A stretch of DNA of 60,326 nucleotides, from positions 1-60,326 of the forward strand of contig MQRK01253414.1 in assembly GCA_001938485.1 (NCBI GenBank). The letters are read 5' to 3'. The notes beneath the pieces were generated by a model. That model had not been told where the DNA came from, did not search any database, and worked only from the letters and a program-made list of their open reading frames with translations. Of this stretch, positions 2,198 through 58,837 are shown piece after piece. Each line of letters begins with the position of its first letter. Within the stretch, counting starts at the first letter, position 1. The position numbers were made by a program, and so were the translations under genes. The DNA is from Girardia tigrina. Taxonomy: Eukaryota.

Positions 2198-3144
2198 TTA
2201 GGGTGAACCAAAAGTCTTTTCGTATTTTCTACGTCTTTTTGTTCAATTGTTTCTCATTACCAAATAAAGATATTTTATATACATGTTTATATGTTTTTAA
2301 AGTTCTTGAACTGCTCTATCACAATATATATTAAAACTTATAATTAGTCGTTAATATAATTTTTATGATCTTTTAGAAAAATCATGAAAAATTTTGAAAT
2401 TCGTGTTCTTTTACGCCATTACTGGAAACAGGGCTTAAACGCAACTGCAGCAACNNNNNNNNNNNNNNNNNNNNNNNNNNNNNNNNNNNNNNNNNNNNNN
2501 NNNNNNNNNNNNNNNNNNNNNNNNNNNNNNNNNNNNNNNNNNNNNNNNNNNNNNNNNNNNNNNNNNNNNNNNNNNNNNNNNNNNNNNNNNNNNNNNNNNN
2601 NNNNNNNNNNNNNNNNNNNNNNNNNNNNNNNNNNNNNNNNNNNNNNNNNNNNNNNNNNNNNNNNNNNNNNNNNNNNNNNNNNNNNNNNNNNNNNNNNNNN
2701 NNNNNNNNNNNNNNNNNNNNNNNNNNNNNNNNNNNNNNNNNNNNNNNNNNNNNNNNNNNNNNNNNNNNNNNNNNNNNNNNNNNNNNNNNNNNNNNNNNNN
2801 NNNNNNNNNNNNNNNNNNNNNNNNNNNNNNNNNNNNNNNNNNNNNNNNNNNNNNNNNNNNNNNNNNNNNNNNNNNNNNNNNNNNNNNNNNNNNNNNNNNN
2901 NNNNNNNNNNNNNNNNNNNNNNNNNNNNNNNNNNNNNNNNNNNNNNNNNNNNNNNNNNNNNNNNNNNNNNNNNNNNNNNNNNNNNNNNNNNNNNNNNNNN
3001 NNNNNNNNNNNNNNNNNNNNNNNNNNNNNNNNAAGCTATAGATTCAAATGGCCTTTACTTTGAAACTTAAATGTTTTTTATTTGTTGTAAAATTATGTTT
3101 AAATTTTTAATAAAAAATACGAAAAGACTTTTGGTTCACCCTAA
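2198..3144 (+). mobile_element. mariner transposon, interior hidden by an assembly gap
   Basis: Matching ~30-bp TIRs TTAGGGTGAACCAAAAGTCTTTTCGTATTTT with TA on both sides. Transposase N-terminus MKNFEIRVLLRHYWKQGLNATAA and C-terminus AIDSNGLYFET flank the N-run. Confidence 0.92.
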
Positions 3145-9422: not shown

Positions 9423-9612
9423 TAATAAATATTAGGTCCTACTTTGTTTTGATTCTAGTTTTAGTTTAATTTAATTATGTTTTTTATTTTTGATGGATCT
9501 GAACCAATTTTTTAAAATTATAATTATACATAAAACTTTACATAACTTTTAATATTAATTCTAATTTTAATAGTTTAACTTCTTTTATTAAATTTCTTTT
9601 TATTGATTAAAG

Positions 9613-11150
9613 TTGTTACAATACGAAGGCGAGACAACTGAGCTGAATTTTTTAGCTTACACTGACGATCTCTGTCTCATCGATCTTGACTACAACAATC
9701 TGGTCAGCAATCTTGATATATTAAATAGTGTTTTCACTAAGATGGGTCTGAAAATCAATGTCTCAAAAACTAAGATTATGAATCTGAATGGACAAAGGAT
9801 ACATGCAGCCGCGAATATCAATGACATACAAATAGAATGGGTAACTGAATTCAACTATTTGGGTTCCCAGTTTACCACAAAAGGTACTTGTGAGCACGAC
9901 ATCAAGTAAAGGATAAAGAAAGGAAAAACCAAACTAAGGGAACTCGCTCCGGTAATCACAGTTAATATGCTTACCCTAAGACGTAAAAAAGCACCGATTG
10001 AAAGCTGTATATTTCCTATTGTATACTTTGACTCGGAGAACTGGCGTACAAACGAGAGCCTCATCAGAAAACTTGAAACCTACATAACGCGTGCACAAGA
10101 ACAGCACTTAATGTAGATAAGAAAGATCATATAAGAATGGACTCGATCAGTATCGGATTAGATCATCCAATGAACATCGTTGCCAAGAGACGGCTTTTAT
10201 TCCACGTCCCCTTGGCAACAGAAGAAGGTCAGCTATGTGTGCAAAGAATTCTGAAAAGCACAATGAAATACAATAGAAAGATCGCGAGAAGAAACAAACA
10301 GAAACTCGAAGAATGCCTACGGATCAATGCGGAATGGCTGTTCGGAGAGACCACCTCTGTTCACTCAGTTATCAGCCTGTTAGCATATGGCGCTCAACTC
10401 TGAATGCGAGACAGGCTCGATCATTTAATCCACAACAGGAGTATCGTAGGGAGGAAGACCGAAGATCTTCCGAACCTGATCAAACCGAGAATGAAAATGG
10501 TCCAATGTCACTATGAGCTTTGCGAGAAGGCCTTTGCAGAACAAAAGGAGCTCAATAGACATATTAAAATGGATCATGAAACGGCACCGGACAAGCAAAA
10601 ACCTTATCCATGTCAGTACTGCTCCAAGAGCTATGTATCAATGGGGTGGCTGACCAGATACTACAAGATAGATCACACGGAACAAGCAAATCAATCCAAT
10701 CAAATCCAACAGAAGCATCAAAAAAGAAAAGCAGGTGACTGTTGTGATGGAGATTTGTGTGGTGGGGTAAAATTGATCGGCGAAACCAGGAAGAAGGAAG
10801 ACAATCCAACAATTACAAACTGTATTCAGGTACGAACCGTCGATACGAATGTTTCAAAGATTCTCTCGGAAACGATCTCCTTAGAAGTGTTAAATTTCCG
10901 TTTAACGGATTTATCTGAAAAAAGAAATTTCAACTGTCCTTTCACTAGCTTTTCAAAGTCCACAGGAAAGACCAAAGGAATGCTAAATCATGGAACATCC
11001 AAACATGGTTGGTCGTTTTTTACTGGGGGTCCGAAGAGACATCGTAAGCGTAAAGCGGACAACCTCGTAGGAGGCCTATCGGGGGCTGCTAGTGCTTTTT
11101 AGTTGGGGTGGACCCTCTAAAGAGCCTAAAGAGATAGGAGGTCCACGTGT
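9613..11150 (+). mobile_element. 5'-truncated RTE-like non-LTR retrotransposon (RT C-terminal half plus C2H2 zinc fingers), decayed
   Basis: RT motifs LAYTDD, GLKINVSKTKIM and FNYLGS, followed by C2H2-like fingers CHYELCEKAF..KELNRHIKMDH, KPYPCQYCSKSY..GWLTRY..IDH and CPF...GMLNHGTSKH. In-frame stops and frameshifts. Short GC-richer 3' end at 11101-11150. Confidence 0.85.
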
Positions 11151-14567: not shown

Positions 14568-16961
14568 CACTGTGTAACAAAATTTTTCAAAAGTTTCTCT
14601 CGCAAACGGTTTTCAGAATTTTTTGATACTTTTTAACGTGCTGGTTTTGAATTTGTTATCGGTTTTCTTTTTCCGTCTCCGAATTAACCTAGGAATTAAA
14701 AAAAAGAATTTTGCAAAAAACCCTCATTTTTTAATTATTTTCGTATCAGATTTGTTGTAATGACCAGAAAATGTCCCACAAGAAGTTATAGTTCAAAATA
14801 TCAATAGCAAAGAAGCTCAAACTGACAAGCATAGCATAACAGTGGATTGTAAAGTCATGTGTAAACAATCAAAAGTGAAAGTTTGAACGGGACTGTCTTT
14901 TATGTTGTGTGCTATCGTCTCTTATCAAAAACCAAAGGTAATCTCCCCTCATTGCTGTATCCAACGCTCCTTGGTACCTTTTCTCCATTGTTTGGTGGAA
15001 GCGTTCAACCTGTTCCTCGCTAAAGTCACCAAGGTTTTCCCGAAACCAATGTAGATGCGAATGCAAATAATGAAGTTTCTCCGACATTCTGCAGCCATGT
15101 TTTTCGAAGTGTTTGAGCAAATCATTGATCAGTATTTGGTACTCGTCACACTTCTTATTTCCGATGAATCCTTCCACAACTTTTCTAAAGGCTCTCCAGG
15201 CATTCCTTTCTTTAGGAGTCATCTTCTTTTCCAAGTCCTCTGAAGCCAACATAAATCTAATTTGAGGGCCCGTGAATACACAGCTTGGACTTCAGCTTCA
15301 GAAAACTTGGGAAACATTTTGCTAATATATTTGAATGCCCGTCCGCTGGGATTTAAAGCTTTTACAAATTGTTTCGCAAATCTTACCTTTTTGTATGTAA
15401 TGGTGGNNNNNNNNNNNNNNNNNNNNNNNNNNNNNNNNNNNNNNNNNNNNNNNNNNATCGGTTTTCTTTTTCCGTCTCCGAATTAACCTAGGAATTAAAA
15501 AAAAGAATTTTGCAAAAAACCCTCATTTTTTAATTATTTTCGTATCAGATTTGTTGTAATGACCAGAAAATGTCCAAATTGTTTCGCAAATCTTACCTTT
15601 TTGTATGTAATGGTGGAAGCAAAATCTTTTCTTTTCAGACTAAAGGAGGGTGTATGACATTGTACTTTCCAGGAAGAAATGCATCTCTAAGGGGCCAATC
15701 TTTTGTAGCATAATGTTGATCTGTAGCCCGACTGTCCCAGAGACAAAGAAAGCAGGAATATTTTGTATATCCACCTTTTAATTCAAGTAAAAATCTAATC
15801 ATTTTAAAGTCTCCGCAGACCTCACACTTATATTTGTCGTAATCAATCATTTGTGATAAGATTTTCACATTTCCGTACTCTTCTTTGAGGTGGACGGAAT
15901 GGAATATTGGGATAGAAGGGAAAATATTGCCGTTATGGAGTAAAATAGCCTTTAGGCTTCTATTTGAGCTGTCGATAAATAGCCACCAGTGACTTGGATG
16001 ATGTTCATAACCAATTTTTTGAAAAAGCCCAGTCAGGTCTGAGCAGCAGCACAAAGAGTCTTTCATCGTATAAAACTTCGAGAAACATTCATGTCGTTTT
16101 CGATAAAATGATGATTTGCAGATTGGATCCAGCAAACTCCACTCTTTCAAACGAGAGGCAAATAGTTCAGCATTTGATTTCGTAAGTCCTAGGTCTCTTA
16201 TTAAGTCATCAAGCAGGACATTCATTGGACTTTTTTCAACAAAATCCACGTCAGTGTCACTATCTTCTTTATGAGAAAACTCATCGTCAGAGATGGCTTT
16301 TAGAGGTGGTGGTTGAGGTACTGGTAATTCTTTAGAGTGGAGCACGGGGCTAAAGATGATGGGATGTTGGGATAAATAAGACTTTTTTGATCTCTGGGAT
16401 TTTTAAATTTAGAAATGTCTACCATACAGTAATAGTAATCATCGTGGTGATTTGTTGGCTCTCTCCATATCCGAGGGATTCTAAAAGGCATGCTGCTGAG
16501 ATTACCATTTACCCATTTTCCTAAATTTGACCGGTAAGTATCACAACTGAAATGTGGCGTCCATGATTTGTCTTCATCAGTGACAGGAACACCAAAGTAA
16601 GCCTCATAAGCAGGGCATAATTTACTACCAGTTGAAAATGCATATTTTCGCTGTTTTGGAGCTATATAATACCCGCATATATAGCAAAAGGAGTTGTGGA
16701 AGATTTCACAAGCTCGCTTGCTCGTCATAGTAGGTAATTGAAAATACTTAATAATGTTAATGAGCTATTGATACGTTTAAACAAAAGGGAAATCTATTAC
16801 GTATTAATCTAAAACAGAAAAAAATAGAAAATAAAGAAAATATTAAATAGCGGCAAATAATTAGATGGTGTGCAAAAACTAATATCATATTCGTAATCAA
16901 CATACTCAAATTGTGTAAGGAACATAGAAATTATTTTGCGGGAAAAAATTGTTACACAGTG
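14568..16961 (-). mobile_element. Chapaev3-type (CMC/EnSpm superfamily) DNA transposon, frameshifted transposase at 14869-16728
   Basis: TIRs CACTGTGTAACAA and 3-bp TSD TTA on both sides. Protein motifs FCYICG, MPF.IPRIWREP..H.DD.Y.C, WWLFIDSS.RSLKA.LLHNGN, CGDFK, GYTKYSCFLCLWDSRA, KLHYLHSHL and SEEQVERFHQ. Confidence 0.88.
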
Positions 16962-17615: not shown

Positions 17616-19100
17616 AAGTGCGTTCAGAAAGTCACTGTGCACCTTTCATTGTCTGGTTTATTTTTAGATAATCAGCGTTGTAGTAGACTTTTTAAATGCA
17701 AATTTCTATGAAATCGAACTATGAAATAGATTCGTGAACAAAAAATATACCTACACACTTTGACCTTGACACTGAGCGTTTTAAATTTTTTAAAAAAAAT
17801 ATCATTTTGATATTCAATCTAATCATTGACGAAAGTCAATCTATTGCGAAGTTAATTCCAATTGAAAATGGTTTTGTCAACGGAGGAGAGAATATTTTTG
17901 ATTGAACATGTCTTTCGTGCGAATGATGAATACACAGAAGCAGTGAAGGAAAAATTTGCCNNNNNNNNNNNNNNNNNNNNNNNNNNNNNNNNNNNNNNNN
18001 NNNNNNNNNNNNNNNNNNNNNNNNNNNNNNNNNNNNNNNNNNNNNNNNNNNNNNNNNNNNNNNNNNNNNNNNNNNNNNNNNNNNNNNNNNNNNNNNNNNN
18101 NNNNNNNNNNNNNNNNNNNNNNNNNNNNNNNNNNNNNNNNNNNNNNNNNNNNNNNNNNNNNNNNNNNNNNNNNNNNNNNNNNNNNNNNNNNNNNNNNNNN
18201 NNNNNNNNNNNNNNNNNNNNNNNNNNNNNNNNNNNNNNNNNNNNNNNNNNNNNNNNNNNNNNNNNNNNNNNNNNNNNNNNNNNNNNNNNNNNNNNNNNNN
18301 NNNNNNNNNNNNNNNNNNNNNNNNNNNNNNNNNNNNNNNNNNNNNNNNNNNNNNNNNNNNNNNNNNNNNNNNNNNNNNNNNNNNNNNNNNNNNNNNNNNN
18401 NNNNNNNNNNNNNNNNNNNNNNNNNNNNNNNNNNNNNNNNNNNNNNNNNNNNNNNNNNNNNNNNNNNNNNNNNNNNNNNNNNNNNNNNNNNNNNNNNNNN
18501 NNNNNNNNNNNNNNNNNNNNNNNNNNNNNNNNNNNNNNNNNNNNNNNNNNNNNNNNNNNNNNNNNNNNNNNNNNNNNNNNNNNNNNNNNNNNNNNNNNNN
18601 NNNNNNNNNNNNNNNNNNNNNNNNNNNNNNNNNNNNNNNNNNNNNNNNNNNNNNNNNNNNNNNNNNNNNNNNNNNNNNAATGAGATCTTCCCGAAGAGAA
18701 TCATTTCCAAAGGAATTTGGCCGCCAAGATCCCCAGATCTAAGTGTTTTGGACTTTTATCTGTGTGGAGCGATAAAGCAAAAGGTTTACCGAAACAAACC
18801 ACAAATTTTGCAAGACCTACATGATAACATCCTACACCAAATTGAAGCCATCACCCAAGAGGAAATTCATCGAGTGTTCGAAAACTTGAAACGTCGAATT
18901 AACGTTTGTATTCACGAACTTGGTGGGCATTTCCAACAGTTGTTGTGACTCTTTTCTTGTTATTTTTAATAAAGTAAGAGACGGTCATTGTTCTTCACAT
19001 AAAATTGACTATTCAAAATATTTTGTTATTGATTTTTAGAACACAGGATATCGTTCTTGTTTTGAAATTGCAGGTGCACAGTTACTTTTTGAACGCACTG
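17616..19100 (+). mobile_element. Tc1/mariner-superfamily transposon (rosa/maT-like), interior hidden by a gap
   Basis: TIRs (C/A)AGTGCGTTCA(G/A)AAAGT(C/A)ACTGTGCACCT with flanking TA. N-terminus MVLSTEERIFLIEHVFR; C-terminus WPPRSPDLSVLDFYLCGAIKQKVY...CIHELGGHFQQLL*. Confidence 0.92.
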
Positions 19101-24190: not shown

Positions 24191-25005
24191 TTGATAAAAC
24201 AAAATCCAGATGATAATTTTCTTTTAAAAACAACACTCATCCATTTAAAATTATATTTATAGACAATATATTTCGACGGATCTACCGTCATCTTCAGGTC
24301 ACTAATTAATAATCAATTCACCTGTATATAAATACAAAAATGAAGGTTATGTAATCGATTGTATGAAGTCATGCTAATCAAAAAATAAGATGGTTGAGAC
24401 TGCCGATTGAACATTCATCTTAGGGCAACGTGACCAATGCTTCACACGACACTCCCAATAACTGTCAAAATGCTTACACAGAATTTTGAAATTATCAAAA
24501 TTAACATCACATTTATATTTTTTCCTATGTTCTACAATGTTACTCTTACTCTCTTTTCGACCATGTTCTTGAATTCGTTTACAGAGATAACGGGCAGTCT
24601 CTCCAATGTATGTGACATCGCACCCATTACATTTATATTCATAAATAATATCAGAACAAAGTGTTAAAGGTGTAATAGATTTATTACTGAACATATTTTG
24701 AATTTTATGAGATTGTGATATAATTTTAAAATTTAATTCATTGTTAGTTGCTTTTAACAATGCATTTTTAAAGTTTTTAAATCTTTCAGAATAAGGTACA
24801 ATTAAGCAATATTTAGGCATATTATTAATATCTAATGATCTTTCGATTTCTTTCTTAGATCAATCAGGAGATTCTGATTTTTCGAACTCTGATTTTTCGA
24901 AAAATCAAAAGTATTTTATCAATTGTTTCCTTTATTAATATTTCTAGAAAAATGGATCTAAGAAAGAAATTCTATAAATATATTTTTTAATGGATGAGTG
25001 TTGTT
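24191..25005 (-). mobile_element. Penelope-like retroelement fragment (GIY-YIG endonuclease, pLTR with hammerhead, short inverted tail)
   Basis: ORF 24374-24820 contains IIYEYKCNGCDVTYIGETARYLCKRIQEH (GIY-YIG of Penelope-like elements). 13-bp TSD TTATAATTTATAA at 24178-24190 and 25006-25018. Inverted piece at ~24951-25005. Confidence 0.88.
24262..24300 (-). ncRNA. minimal type I hammerhead ribozyme (Penelope-type)
   Basis: GAC-CUGAAGA-U-GACGG-UAGAU-CCGUC-GAAA-UAUA-UU-GUC: intact core, 5-bp stem II, palindromic AUAUAU stem III, GAC/GUC stem I. Confidence 0.8.
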
Positions 25006-43345: not shown

Positions 43346-44455
43346 TTAGGTTGGTCGAAAAATAATGGCGGTTTTTGAGCTTTATACTTTGTTTATCTAC
43401 TTTGTTATGTATATAAGTTTAAATGCATTAGTGTTAGATATTATTTGAAATCTTATGCCTANNNNNNNNNNNNNNNNNNNNNNNNNNNNNNNNNNNNNNN
43501 NNNNNNNNNNNNNNNNNNNNNNNNNNNNNNNNNNNNNNNNNNNNNNNNNNNNNNNNNNNNNNNNNNNNNNNNNNNNNNNNNNNNNNNNNNNNNNNNNNNN
43601 NNNNNNNNNNNNNNNNNNNNNNNNNNNNNNNNNNNNNNNNNNNNNNNNNNNNNNNNNNNNNNNNNNNNNNNNNNNNNNNNNNNNNNNNNNNNNNNNNNNN
43701 NNNNNNNNNNNNNNNNNNNNNNNNNNNNNNNNNNNNNNNNNNNNNNNNNNNNNNNNNNNNNNNNNNNNNNNNNNNNNNNNNNNNNNNNNNNNNNNNNNNN
43801 NNNNNNNNNNNNNNNNNNNNNNNNNNNNNNNNNNNNNNNNNNNNNNNNNNNNNNNNNNNNNNNNNNNNNNNNNNNNNNNNNNNNNNNNNNNNNNNNNNNN
43901 NNNNNNNNNNNNNNNNNNNNNNNNNNNNNNNNNNNNNNNNNNNNNNNNNNNNNNNNNNNNNNNNNNNNNNNNNNNNNNNNNNNNNNNNNNNNNNNNNNNN
44001 NNNNNNNNNNNNNNNNNNNNNNNNNNNNNNNNNNNNNNNNNNNNNNNNNNNNNNNNNNNNNNNNNNNNNNNNNNNNNNNNNNNNNNNNNNNNNNNNNNNN
44101 NNNNNNNNNNNNNNNNNNNNNNNNNNNNNNNNNNNNNNNNNNNNNNNNNNNNNNNNNNNNNNNNNNNNNNNNNNNNNNNNNNNNNNNNNNNNNNNNNNNN
44201 NNNNNNNNNNNNNNNNNNNNNCCTACGTGAAAAAATTTTCAAAAACCAAAATGATGCTCAAAATGCCTTCCAAGAATTCGTCGCTTTGAGAACCGATGCA
44301 TTTTATGCTGATGGAATAAAACAACTTGTTTCTCGTTGGCGAAAATGTATTGATGCCAACGGTTTATACTTTGATTAATAAACTTTTGTTTCTGTGAATT
44401 TGCACGTCTTTGAAGTTTGTGTCCCAAAACCGCCATTATTTATCGACTAACCTAA
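43346..44455 (+). mobile_element. mariner transposon, interior hidden by an assembly gap
   Basis: TIRs TTAGGTT(G/A)GTCGA(A/T)AAATAATGGCGGTTTT with flanking TA. C-terminus FYADGIKQLVSRWRKCIDANGLYFD*. Confidence 0.92.
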
Positions 44456-54480: not shown

Positions 54481-55444
54481 ACTAATTAATAATCAATTCA
54501 CCTGTATATTGAGACTGCCGATTGAAAATTGATTTTAGGGTAACGTGATCTAATTAACAATGTTTCACACGACACTCTCTCCCAATAACTGTCAAAATGC
54601 TTACACAGAATTTTGAAATTATCAAAATTAAGATCACATTTACATTTTTTTCCTATGTTCTGCAATATTACTCTTATTCTCTTCGACCATGTTCTTGAAT
54701 TCGTTTACAGAGATGATGGGTAGTCTCGCCAATGTATGTGGCATCGCAACCATTACATAAGGTACAATTAAACAATATATAGGCATATTATTAATATCTA
54801 ATGATCCTTCGATTTCTTTCTTAGATCCATCAGGAGAAGCCAAACTCTGAGTTTTTGAAAAATCAAAAGTATTTAAACTACTGTTTCCTTTATTAATTTT
54901 TCTAGAAAAATTGATCTAAGAAAGAAATCAAAGGATCATTAGATATTAATAATATGCATATAATATGCCTTAATAATATTGTTTAATTGTACCTTATTCT
55001 GAAGGATTTAAAAACTTTAAAAATGCATTGTTAAAAGCAACGAACAATTAAATTTTAAAATTATATCACGATCTCATAAAATTCAAAATATTGTTCAGTA
55101 ATAAATCTATTGCACATTTAACACTTTGTTCTGATATTGTTTATGAATATAAATGTAATGGGTGCGATGCCACATACATTGGAGAGACTGCCCGTCATCT
55201 CTGTAAACGAATTCAAGAACATGGTCGAAAAGAGAGTAAGAGTAATATTGCAGAACATAGGAAAAAATGTAAATGTGATGTTAATTTTGATAATTTAAAA
55301 ATTCTGTGTATCCATTTTCAATCTATTTTCAATCGGCAGTCTCAACCAGCTTATTGACAATTTTAGATTAGAATGACTTCACACAGTCGATTACATAATC
55401 ACCATTTTTGTATTTATATACCGGTGAATTGATTATTAATTAGT

Positions 55445-56573: not shown

Positions 56574-57150
56574 TATGTTTTTTTAAGGAGGACAAACAAT
56601 TAATGATGCTACTGAGTTTTAACGATTGAATTACATTATTTAAATGTAGGGATCAAATAAATTCAATAATCGTGGGATTAATTTACTTACTTGTGTAATT
56701 AGAAGAATTGTCAAAATCTTTTTATAAATTTAAGAATCAGTTTATTTACTCATGTGATTGTTTTAATCAGTTGATAAAAAAATGAAAAGAAAGAAAAATA
56801 AATTTAAAAATATAAAAACATAAAATAAAATTAAACGATTAAAAAATTGAAAATTAAAATAATTCTATAAATAATTTTAATATTTTTTATAATATTTAAA
56901 TTCATTAATGAATTTCCATTTTAAATTCTCCATAATTTAAATCTTCAAATAAAGAAATTGATTCTGATTTTGTTATGTTTAAAAAAATAATATTTCATTT
57001 AAATTAAACTCTTCTTTAAAATGGATAAATTTTAAGTATAAATCAAAGATAAATTATTTGAATTATTTAATTGGTTGTTTTTCAAATTATAATCATTACA
57101 TAAGGTAAATAATTTTGATTTATTAAAACAAAGTATTTAAATTATTATTT

Positions 57151-57506
57151 TTTACGGACCATAGTCGTTGGGCCGTGGGTGCACCCAATTATGCACAACA
57201 TATTTTTTAGTGTTTCAGTAGGCAAATAATCTAGTGGCGTCTATCTCATCTCCAGGTATGATTGGCCGTTGGCTTCAAGGAGTTCATCCAACCTTTGACA
57301 GGTTTTGTTTAGTGTCGACACAGCCTCTCATACTAGGTTAATATGGGTGAGGGAGCCGGTTGCAGACATTCTTGTCTAACCTGATCTGAATAGTCAATGG
57401 CTCAACAAATTCCCTATCTGTCACTCACATAAGTACTAACGCGGCCGTTGGAAGGTTACCTTCGGTGATCGGACGAGATCCGGTGTAACTAACCGCGGCC
57501 ACTGAC
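57151..57506 (-). mobile_element. 5S rRNA-derived SINE-like element (SINE3-type)
   Basis: The 5' 114 nt (57506-57393) is 5S-like (CCGGATCTCGTCCGATCACCGAAG, GCGTTAGTACTT, GGGAAT) with helix I GUCAGUGGC/GCCAUUGAC paired. Then a ~240-nt GC-richer body, a 3' stem-loop and an A-rich tail. No TTTT terminator inside. Possible TSD TATTATTT. Confidence 0.8.
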
Positions 57507-58837
57507 TATATTATTTATTTATATTTTTATTAATTTAATAAATTATTTAATATATTCCAAATTAAGATTTTCTAATTATTTTTAAAACAATCAAAAATAT
57601 AAATCTGAAGATAAATTATTTGAAGTATGTAAATGGTTGTTTTTAAATAATAATAATCATGCAATTCAAATAATTTTGATTTATTAAAACAAAGAATTTA
57701 AATTATTTAATATATTTTGGTTTAATATTTTTTAATTAAATATAAAACAATCAAAAATTTTTAAAAAAGAACGCTTTTACATTTTTTTTAATCAAAAATA
57801 ATAAATTTAAATCTTTAATAATTCTCATAAAAAATATTTAAAATTAATATAACAAATTGAAAATCTTTCATCAAAAATAAATTCATAAATCAATAAACAA
57901 AACCGTACCGAATCATTCTGATAATTCCGAAGAATCATAAAAATTGAGGTAGAAAACGGGAACATTTCCAATATTAGCAATACTCTCTCATCAAATTTTC
58001 GTGCTGATAAAAAAACCGAATCGAAATTGAAATATCCAAAAATTAAATTTTAACGAATTTGTTGTTTTTTGGTTTTTGAAGCGAAAAAAGTAATTAAATC
58101 ACGAAATATAATTAATGATAAAATGTTAATATTGGTTGTTTCTTCAATGATAAAAATATGAAACGCAATTCAAATTCACTATACAAATGTAAATTTTTAG
58201 AATTTTTTAGAATGCACCGATTGCAGCTACCTGGCTTGATATATCCAGTACTTCATTTGTACATAGAGCCAAACACACACGATTTTCTCTACCAACTTCA
58301 ACAAATCTCAGCCAATCAGAATTTACTATCAGTGTTATACCTGGTAAGAAAAAACGTGTTGGTGTGTCGAAAACTACTGCTATTTTATGTTACAAATTTT
58401 CTCTCATAAAAAATTTAGACAGTCACTTTGAGTTGTCAAATTTTTTTGAATTTTATGAACGATGTTTTGTGGTTTTTCAAAATTTATTATCTTTTTTTTA
58501 ACAAATGAAATTTAATATCTTTTGTAAAAACGAAAGACAAAAAAAAAGAAAATTAATTTTAAGCATTGAGAAATTATCAAGTCGTTTGTTGTCATAATGA
58601 TTTATATATAAATATTTTGTAAACTTAAATTTAAACTTAAACATGTGCCTAGTTCAAATATATTTACTTTGATAATGTGTGTTGTTTCGATATTTTTCAA
58701 TTTAAATTATAGTGATATTAATAATAATAAATGACATTTTTATAATTGAAAATTATAATAATTATATTGTTAACTTAATTTATATGAAATTTTAATTTCA
58801 ATGAAAAGTTTTCTGTAAATACATCTGGTGTATACAA

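Follow-up and report, generated by a model that had tools for sequence, protein, structure and literature searches.

The window analysed here, a 60,326-nt stretch of the Girardia tigrina genome (contig MQRK01253414.1 of assembly GCA_001938485.1), has ~25% G+C and contains a GC-rich island, and the minus strand of this island begins with a sequence that resembles 5S rRNA. Does it represent a 5S gene, a non-coding RNA with a fold of its own, or a mobile element? The preliminary description, made from the window alone, left the choice between a ~355-nt Pol III retroposon with a 5S head and a structured RNA with a remodelled 5S fold. In the rest of the genome, we find a dispersed family with a three-part anatomy, whose numerous copies fall into two subfamilies, are in part flanked by target-site duplications with an upstream T patch, and are often 5'-truncated. 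We consider it very probable that this family is a SINE that combines a 5S head with both termini of an RTE-type LINE, is likely transcribed by Pol III, and is likely moved by the endonuclease and reverse transcriptase of that LINE.

The head, 115 nt in length (57392..57506, minus strand), scores 42.3 bits against the Rfam 5S family RF00001 (gathering threshold 38; E = 2e-05), in agreement with the homology first proposed. Helix I is fully paired, as had been described, with a probability of 0.99–1.0 in the head alone and 0.54 in the whole copy. The head contains the three elements of a type 1 Pol III promoter, the limits of which we assume from Xenopus numbering: box A at 57447..57461, the intermediate element (IE) at 57439..57444 and box C at 57414..57431, all on the minus strand, with 4/15, 0/6 and 4/18 mismatches to the host 5S gene. 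In the subfamily consensuses, these mismatches come to only 0–1 in box A and 1–2 in box C. No T-run terminator follows the head and no TTTT occurs in the element, just as the preliminary description had it; the T-run is likewise missing from both consensuses, and TTTT is found in five of 39 aligned, decayed copies.

Where did this head come from? The host genome encodes intact 5S genes of two widely differing types, both ending in T-runs. Compared with the type represented by L031, the older SINE consensus has 5 differences in 115 positions and a 4-nt deletion in loop A, and the younger has 11 differences; compared with the second type, both consensuses have 29–33 differences in 115, the older one 29–30. 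The loop-A deletion is present in 39/39 aligned copies. Since the head is close to one host type and distant from the other, it derives from the lineage's own 5S gene, and sequence comparison points to the first type as its only source. An ordinary 5S rRNA gene was considered for the element itself and rejected, as its loop A is incomplete and it lacks the T-run terminator. Two side observations concern the host genes. The types, comprising L031–L036 and L037, L039, L041 and L054, also differ in arrangement, with the second occurring in short tandem units of ~311 bp. Moreover, the 5S copies at L039, L044, L047 and L054, which have an intact loop A, continue into non-SINE sequence; three of the four have a similar downstream motif, possibly a 5S sequence joined to another element.

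The head is not confined to the window. A DNA search of the species' own genome (1.43 Gb in 255,254 contigs) gave 52 matches, from 40/2145 candidates scored; two of these are repeat assemblies of the same locus, with no difference over 3356 nt, and the others have head and body in common and unrelated sequence on both flanks. Exact patterns for the head-body junction, the 5' end and the tail occur 368, 160 and 464 times, with zero matches for each reversed control. Among 90 tail matches that were fetched, 11 were duplicates, 21 LINEs and 58 SINEs, from which we extrapolate ~340 SINEs among the 464. Only a share of the copies selected by other means has the tail pattern; dividing ~340 by this share yields an estimate of ~2,400–4,500 copies for the assembly, with duplicates counted. 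The range is wide because this share differs between subsets: it is 4/28 among loci selected by their 5' end, 7/92 among the listed junction matches (counted by hand as those sharing a place with a listed 3' match) and 0/46 among fetched loci selected by their junction.

For the alignment, 39 distinct head-bearing copies were taken from the first 109 loci, after removal of 12 duplicates and two near-duplicates. They separate into two subfamilies: in the younger, 28 copies differ from a 434-nt consensus by 7.1%; the older, to which the window copy belongs, comprises 11 copies with a divergence of 14.0% and a consensus of 440 nt. The unit of 434–440 nt joins the 5S head to the first ~265 nt and the last ~50 nt of a LINE and ends in a short A tail. 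Six loci (L090, L095, L097, L100, L107 and L089) have a part of the element inverted beside a direct part, as in twin-primed or rearranged insertions, and one (L242, G000:C75820) has two copies head to tail. In contigs guessed to stem from RNA, three short body pieces were the only matches, in two of four runs.

The LINE origin of body and tail had escaped the preliminary description. It became apparent from 30 reverse-transcriptase loci of the same genome, four of which match the SINE profile. In each case, the match is to the final ~50 nt of the profile and lies at the end of a member of a single LINE family; these four are the only RTE-type loci among the 30. The tail is also present in 32/34 further loci of this LINE family (three pairs being redundant), and its exact 25-mer is carried by 21 copies of an older LINE subfamily. 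The body, for its part, lies directly ahead of the endonuclease frame in long LINE copies, that is, in the LINE 5' UTR. Among 30 loci chosen for this 5' region, 28 match from profile position 98–128, and the LINE 5' edge is sharp, with a common first base preceded by unrelated flanks. From this first base, the SINE consensuses are identical to the LINE 5' end at 246/267 and 239/265 positions (90–92%).

The LINE is ~3.2 kb long and has Exo_endo_phos_2 and RVT_1 domains, short UTRs and a GAA-type tail; its nearest relatives are single endonuclease-RT proteins of ~1020 aa. This is the layout of RTE elements, and by its layout and motifs the partner LINE is a putative member of the RTE clade. The LINE subfamily that was sampled looks younger than the SINE, at 3.9% from its consensus (best matches only) compared with 7–14%. 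The likelier donor, and probably the actual driver, is therefore the older LINE subfamily with the exact tail 25-mer. Just past the part taken by the SINE, at ~nt 285–320 of the LINE 5' UTR (L188–L217), the LINE has an 8-nt and a 13-nt word that are also found in the host 5S in the same order; they could reflect a recombination aid or chance. Fragments of another non-LTR element, at window positions 9607–11102 and at L129, encode a reverse transcriptase followed by C2H2 zinc fingers; the SINE tail is absent from this element.

With these parts in hand, the window copy can be read throughout on the minus strand. It starts with a 3-nt extension, ATA, ahead of the old 5S +1 (57507..57509), which base-pairs with the three nucleotides that follow the head and is likely the transcript start. 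The head is followed by a linker in place of the host T-run terminator (57386..57391; 6 nt in the older and 4 nt in the younger subfamily), the LINE-derived body (57199..57385; across the family, this part extends from LINE nt 1 to nt ~265), the tail shared with the LINE loci (57154..57198, from its last ~45–50 nt) and an A6 tail (57148..57153), which bears out the A-rich tail first described; most full-length copies have A5–8. Relative to its subfamily, the copy has lost 56 nt at 57362/57361, 12 nt at 57311/57310 and 20 nt at the 57199/57198 joint. The length of ~355 nt first described is that of a shortened copy rather than of the 434–440-nt unit. The copy differs from the older consensus, which includes the window copy itself, at 44/352 positions (12.5%), and its promoter boxes are damaged, with four mismatches in box A and as many in box C. 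It is probably inactive.

Its target-site duplication is AT-rich and ambiguous. Runs X1 and X2 each contain one contig with a joint that skips 57154–57510, but with only 21 letters on its short side, in AT-rich DNA, the joint is too weak a signal to count as an empty site. Pieces of the element are present in organism A (runs X1 and X2) and in organism B (run X3); no pieces over the element were seen in run X5 of organism C, sampled at 1 in 100 reads and 82% likeness and hence too thinly to indicate absence. The copy is enclosed by a decayed AT-rich repeat with a ~160-bp period (57040–57146 and 57539–57760), ~110 bp of which recur on both sides, 561–562 apart. Elsewhere in the window, the intervals 2369–3070, 17856–18948, 43379–44378, 14869–16764, 24374–24859 and 55052–55357 are presumably transposon remains. 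Judging by motifs, they comprise frames of mariner/Tc1 type that surround runs of N, a long stretch resembling a DNA transposase, and two fragments of Penelope type with a GIY-YIG-like motif.

Insertion marks that are ambiguous in the window become legible across the family. Duplications scoring at least 8 flank 12 of 40 full-length copies, compared with 2.3% of 1560 mismatched pairs (one near-duplicate pair remained in this sample, both members below threshold). The same score is reached by 18 of 54 tail-selected copies, compared with 3.7% by chance; here, four of the 58 copies were without flank, and one locus is common to both samples. The duplications are of variable length (9–17 nt), and two thirds of the copies have no clear one. 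A T patch lies 10–14 nt upstream: against a background of 40%, T is found in 9–11 of 12 sites at -14 to -12 in the first sample, with 11/12 at -13, and in 12, 10 and 8 of 12 at -12 to -10 in the second. A further T at -1 is artefactual in part, as the scoring runs into the A tail. Nishiyama and Ohshima, in the portion of their paper available to us, describe a T stretch near -10 in RTE-driven SINE insertions (PMC6007223). Finally, 39/58 tail-selected copies are 5'-truncated.

Taken together, the family has what distinguishes a SINE3: a 5S head that matches the Rfam model and has boxes A, IE and C intact in the consensuses, a short unit with fixed ends dispersed in many head-body copies, and target-site duplications, 5' truncation and a simple tail as traces of retroposition. 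As far as its sequence tells, the element is thus a true SINE3 and one of the bipartite RTE-derived SINEs, as the preliminary description had suspected for the 5S part, and the window holds an old, decayed copy of it.

The life cycle of such an element may be outlined as follows. A master copy would be read from its internal A/IE/C promoter, and transcription would run on because the T-run is gone. Type 1 Pol III promoters fix the start by distance, so that the loss of 4 nt between +1 and box A would place the start 3 nt further upstream, where both subfamilies have a purine. The LINE protein would then bind the shared tail and prime at the nicked target. At the far end of the template, the 5' end and the end of the head would form a helix of 12–13 bp, at which reverse transcription would often stop, leaving headless copies.

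Several observations bear on this terminal helix. Up to three extra bases precede the old 5S +1. In the younger copies, -2 is T in 30/34 and -1 is A in 32/34; at -3, G is found in 19/34 younger and A in 8/9 older copies (background A 36%, G 11%), a difference between the subfamilies with P = 3e-5 that represents one evolutionary event only. The three bases are complementary to the three bases after the head and extend the helix to 13 pairs, the outermost being G-C in the younger and A-U in the older subfamily; one pair further inward was gained by a single change from the host 5S gene. The 12–13 bp terminal helix thus holds up, with one compensatory change between the subfamilies. In every prefix of the younger consensus up to 400 nt, its probability is 0.99–1.0, but in a global fold of the full consensus it drops to 0.05, as pairing of the 5' end with the tail is better by 3.7 kcal/mol, and only 7/39 decayed copies exceed 0.5 in global folding. 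In the younger consensus, a one-base change in the tail relative to the LINE makes it complementary to the G-started 5' end, and the predicted fold pairs both ends.

The truncation points of the 58 tail-selected copies are unevenly distributed: 19 copies are full length, 5 are cut at 28–48, none at 49–108, 10 at 109–119 and 24 in the body. From the body rate, 0.78 cuts would be expected at 105–119, against which the 10 observed give P = 0.0012 when any 15-nt window is allowed. Five of these 10 copies have duplications, which marks them as insertion products. This hotspot at the foot of the helix fits a reverse transcriptase that stops at a helix in its template.

That the 5' extension arises anew by fold-back synthesis whenever a copy inserts was considered and rejected: -4 is T in only 10/34 younger copies (background 40%) and A in 2/9 older ones. 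Since the complementarity does not continue to -4 and -5, as fold-back synthesis predicts, a start encoded by the master fits better. Tentatively, and at somewhat less than an even chance, we propose that the masters rebuilt the terminal stem of 5S: the start moved by 3 nt upstream, the new bases came to pair with the linker, and the 13-bp helix was kept even though roughly three in ten of the copies that reach it lose their promoter. If this were true, the family would document in the genome how RNA structure acts on the reverse transcriptase of an RTE, and would serve as a natural test of why some SINEs can keep the very 5' end of their LINE.

The headless copies have another conceivable origin, which we regard as unlikely but still the most serious competitor: processing of the RNA, with the head cut off at the helix foot, or a second transcription start at the retained LINE 5' end. 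After discounting the overlap with duplications, 8/10 headless copies begin at 116–119, at most 4 nt from the LINE start at 120, as such an origin would suggest. However, none begins exactly at 120, five contain linker bases and two reach back to 109; a second start is further at odds with the LINE copies, which have no common bases before the first G. As regards self-cleavage by a ribozyme at the LINE 5' end, 6 SINE and 8 LINE loci have no Rfam ribozyme match, and an HDV-type descriptor (of our own design, used without a positive control) gave none.

Far less probable is that the locus represents a functional structured RNA, or a variant 5S gene, with a remodelled fold. The head exceeds the Rfam threshold and is more stable than shuffled sequences (z = -3.5; 0/200 as stable), but the whole window copy folds no better than they do (z = -1.16; 16/100 as stable). 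The alternative pairing on which the remodelled fold was built does not stand, because its GGCCG arm and helix I both use nt 7–9 and are mutually exclusive; its probability is 0.00 in the head and 0.05 in the whole copy, and that of GGUUA:UAACC is 0.00. Other structural features are indeed where they were described, but are not those of the family: palindrome GUGUCGACAC occurs in 1/39 copies, namely the window copy, and GGGUGCACCC, which is the LINE's own 3' sequence, in 2/39, while the terminal hairpin is present in its letters, with a closing CCGU that neither subfamily consensus has. These special pairings are a matter of decay in the window copy, with its three deletions and eight promoter-box mismatches. 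Moreover, the copies are dispersed with duplications, and the head is conserved no more than the body (8.1 vs 6.7% and 13.8 vs 14.1% divergence in the two subfamilies), hence there is no sign of selection on them; a variant 5S gene is also disfavored by the intact 5S genes with terminators elsewhere in the genome. Least probable of all are one-off chimeras of 5S and LINE RNA, formed by template switching at each insertion without a master gene, for although both parents are abundant in the genome, the fixed head-body junction in 368 exact matches refutes them, as do the loop-A deletion common to 39/39 copies, the one internal LINE deletion and the subfamily-specific bases along the unit.

The genuine SINE3 that we favor instead has several known relatives. 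The design of a 5S head on RTE ends is already known from moths, python, coelacanth and a rodent. The part of Kojima's account available to us lists HaSE3, CoeSINE5 and SINE-1_Pmo as 5S-headed SINEs with RTE 5' and 3' parts (PMC5786205). HaSE3 shares its tail with HaRTE1 of Helicoverpa armigera (PMC3272025) and, as far as the two sources at hand describe it, resembles the present family in the A, IE and C boxes of its 5S head, its piece of RTE 5' UTR, its ~43-nt RTE tail and its length of 349 nt (PMC3272025, PMC5786205). It differs, by the same partial accounts, in that its RTE piece is internal and 54 nt long and its body comes from a tRNA SINE, whereas the family described here has ~265 nt from the LINE's first base and a head that is 90–96% identical to the host's own 5S. 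Likewise, CoeSINE5 (coelacanth), SINE-1_Pmo (python) and Ped-1 of the springhare, a 5S head joined to BovB (PMC3747384), combine a 5S head with RTE 5' and 3' parts, but according to the available portions of these reports they are of independent origin and have shorter RTE parts (PMC5786205, PMC3747384). The TRIMs Cassandra and Ajax also use a 5S-derived promoter in a non-autonomous element; as described in the accessible part of the source, however, they are LTR elements, unlike a family with a LINE tail, an A tail and duplications of variable length (PMC10886601). A TRIM was rejected as a candidate for the element, since two 5S-holding LTRs would be expected and a single head with a LINE tail is found.

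A preprint on Dugesia genomes reports an expansion of SINE/5S and LINE/RTE (bioRxiv 10.64898/2025.12.11.693146); in its available part, this is given as class-level proportions, with no anatomy, partner or subfamilies. The present family may be the one counted there as SINE/5S. Our search of the literature, conducted mostly without full texts, found no account of the family's anatomy or of its truncation hotspot.

The general view of SINEs is left unchanged by this family, in which a 5S head was once more joined independently to the ends of an RTE. The family adds Girardia tigrina to the animals with the RTE insertion signature and, with the parent 5S gene, the parent LINE and two subfamilies preserved in one genome, allows the steps of its birth to be read directly. 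Finally, the truncations clustered at the helix foot make it simple to test how the structure of an RNA limits its reverse transcription by non-LTR elements.
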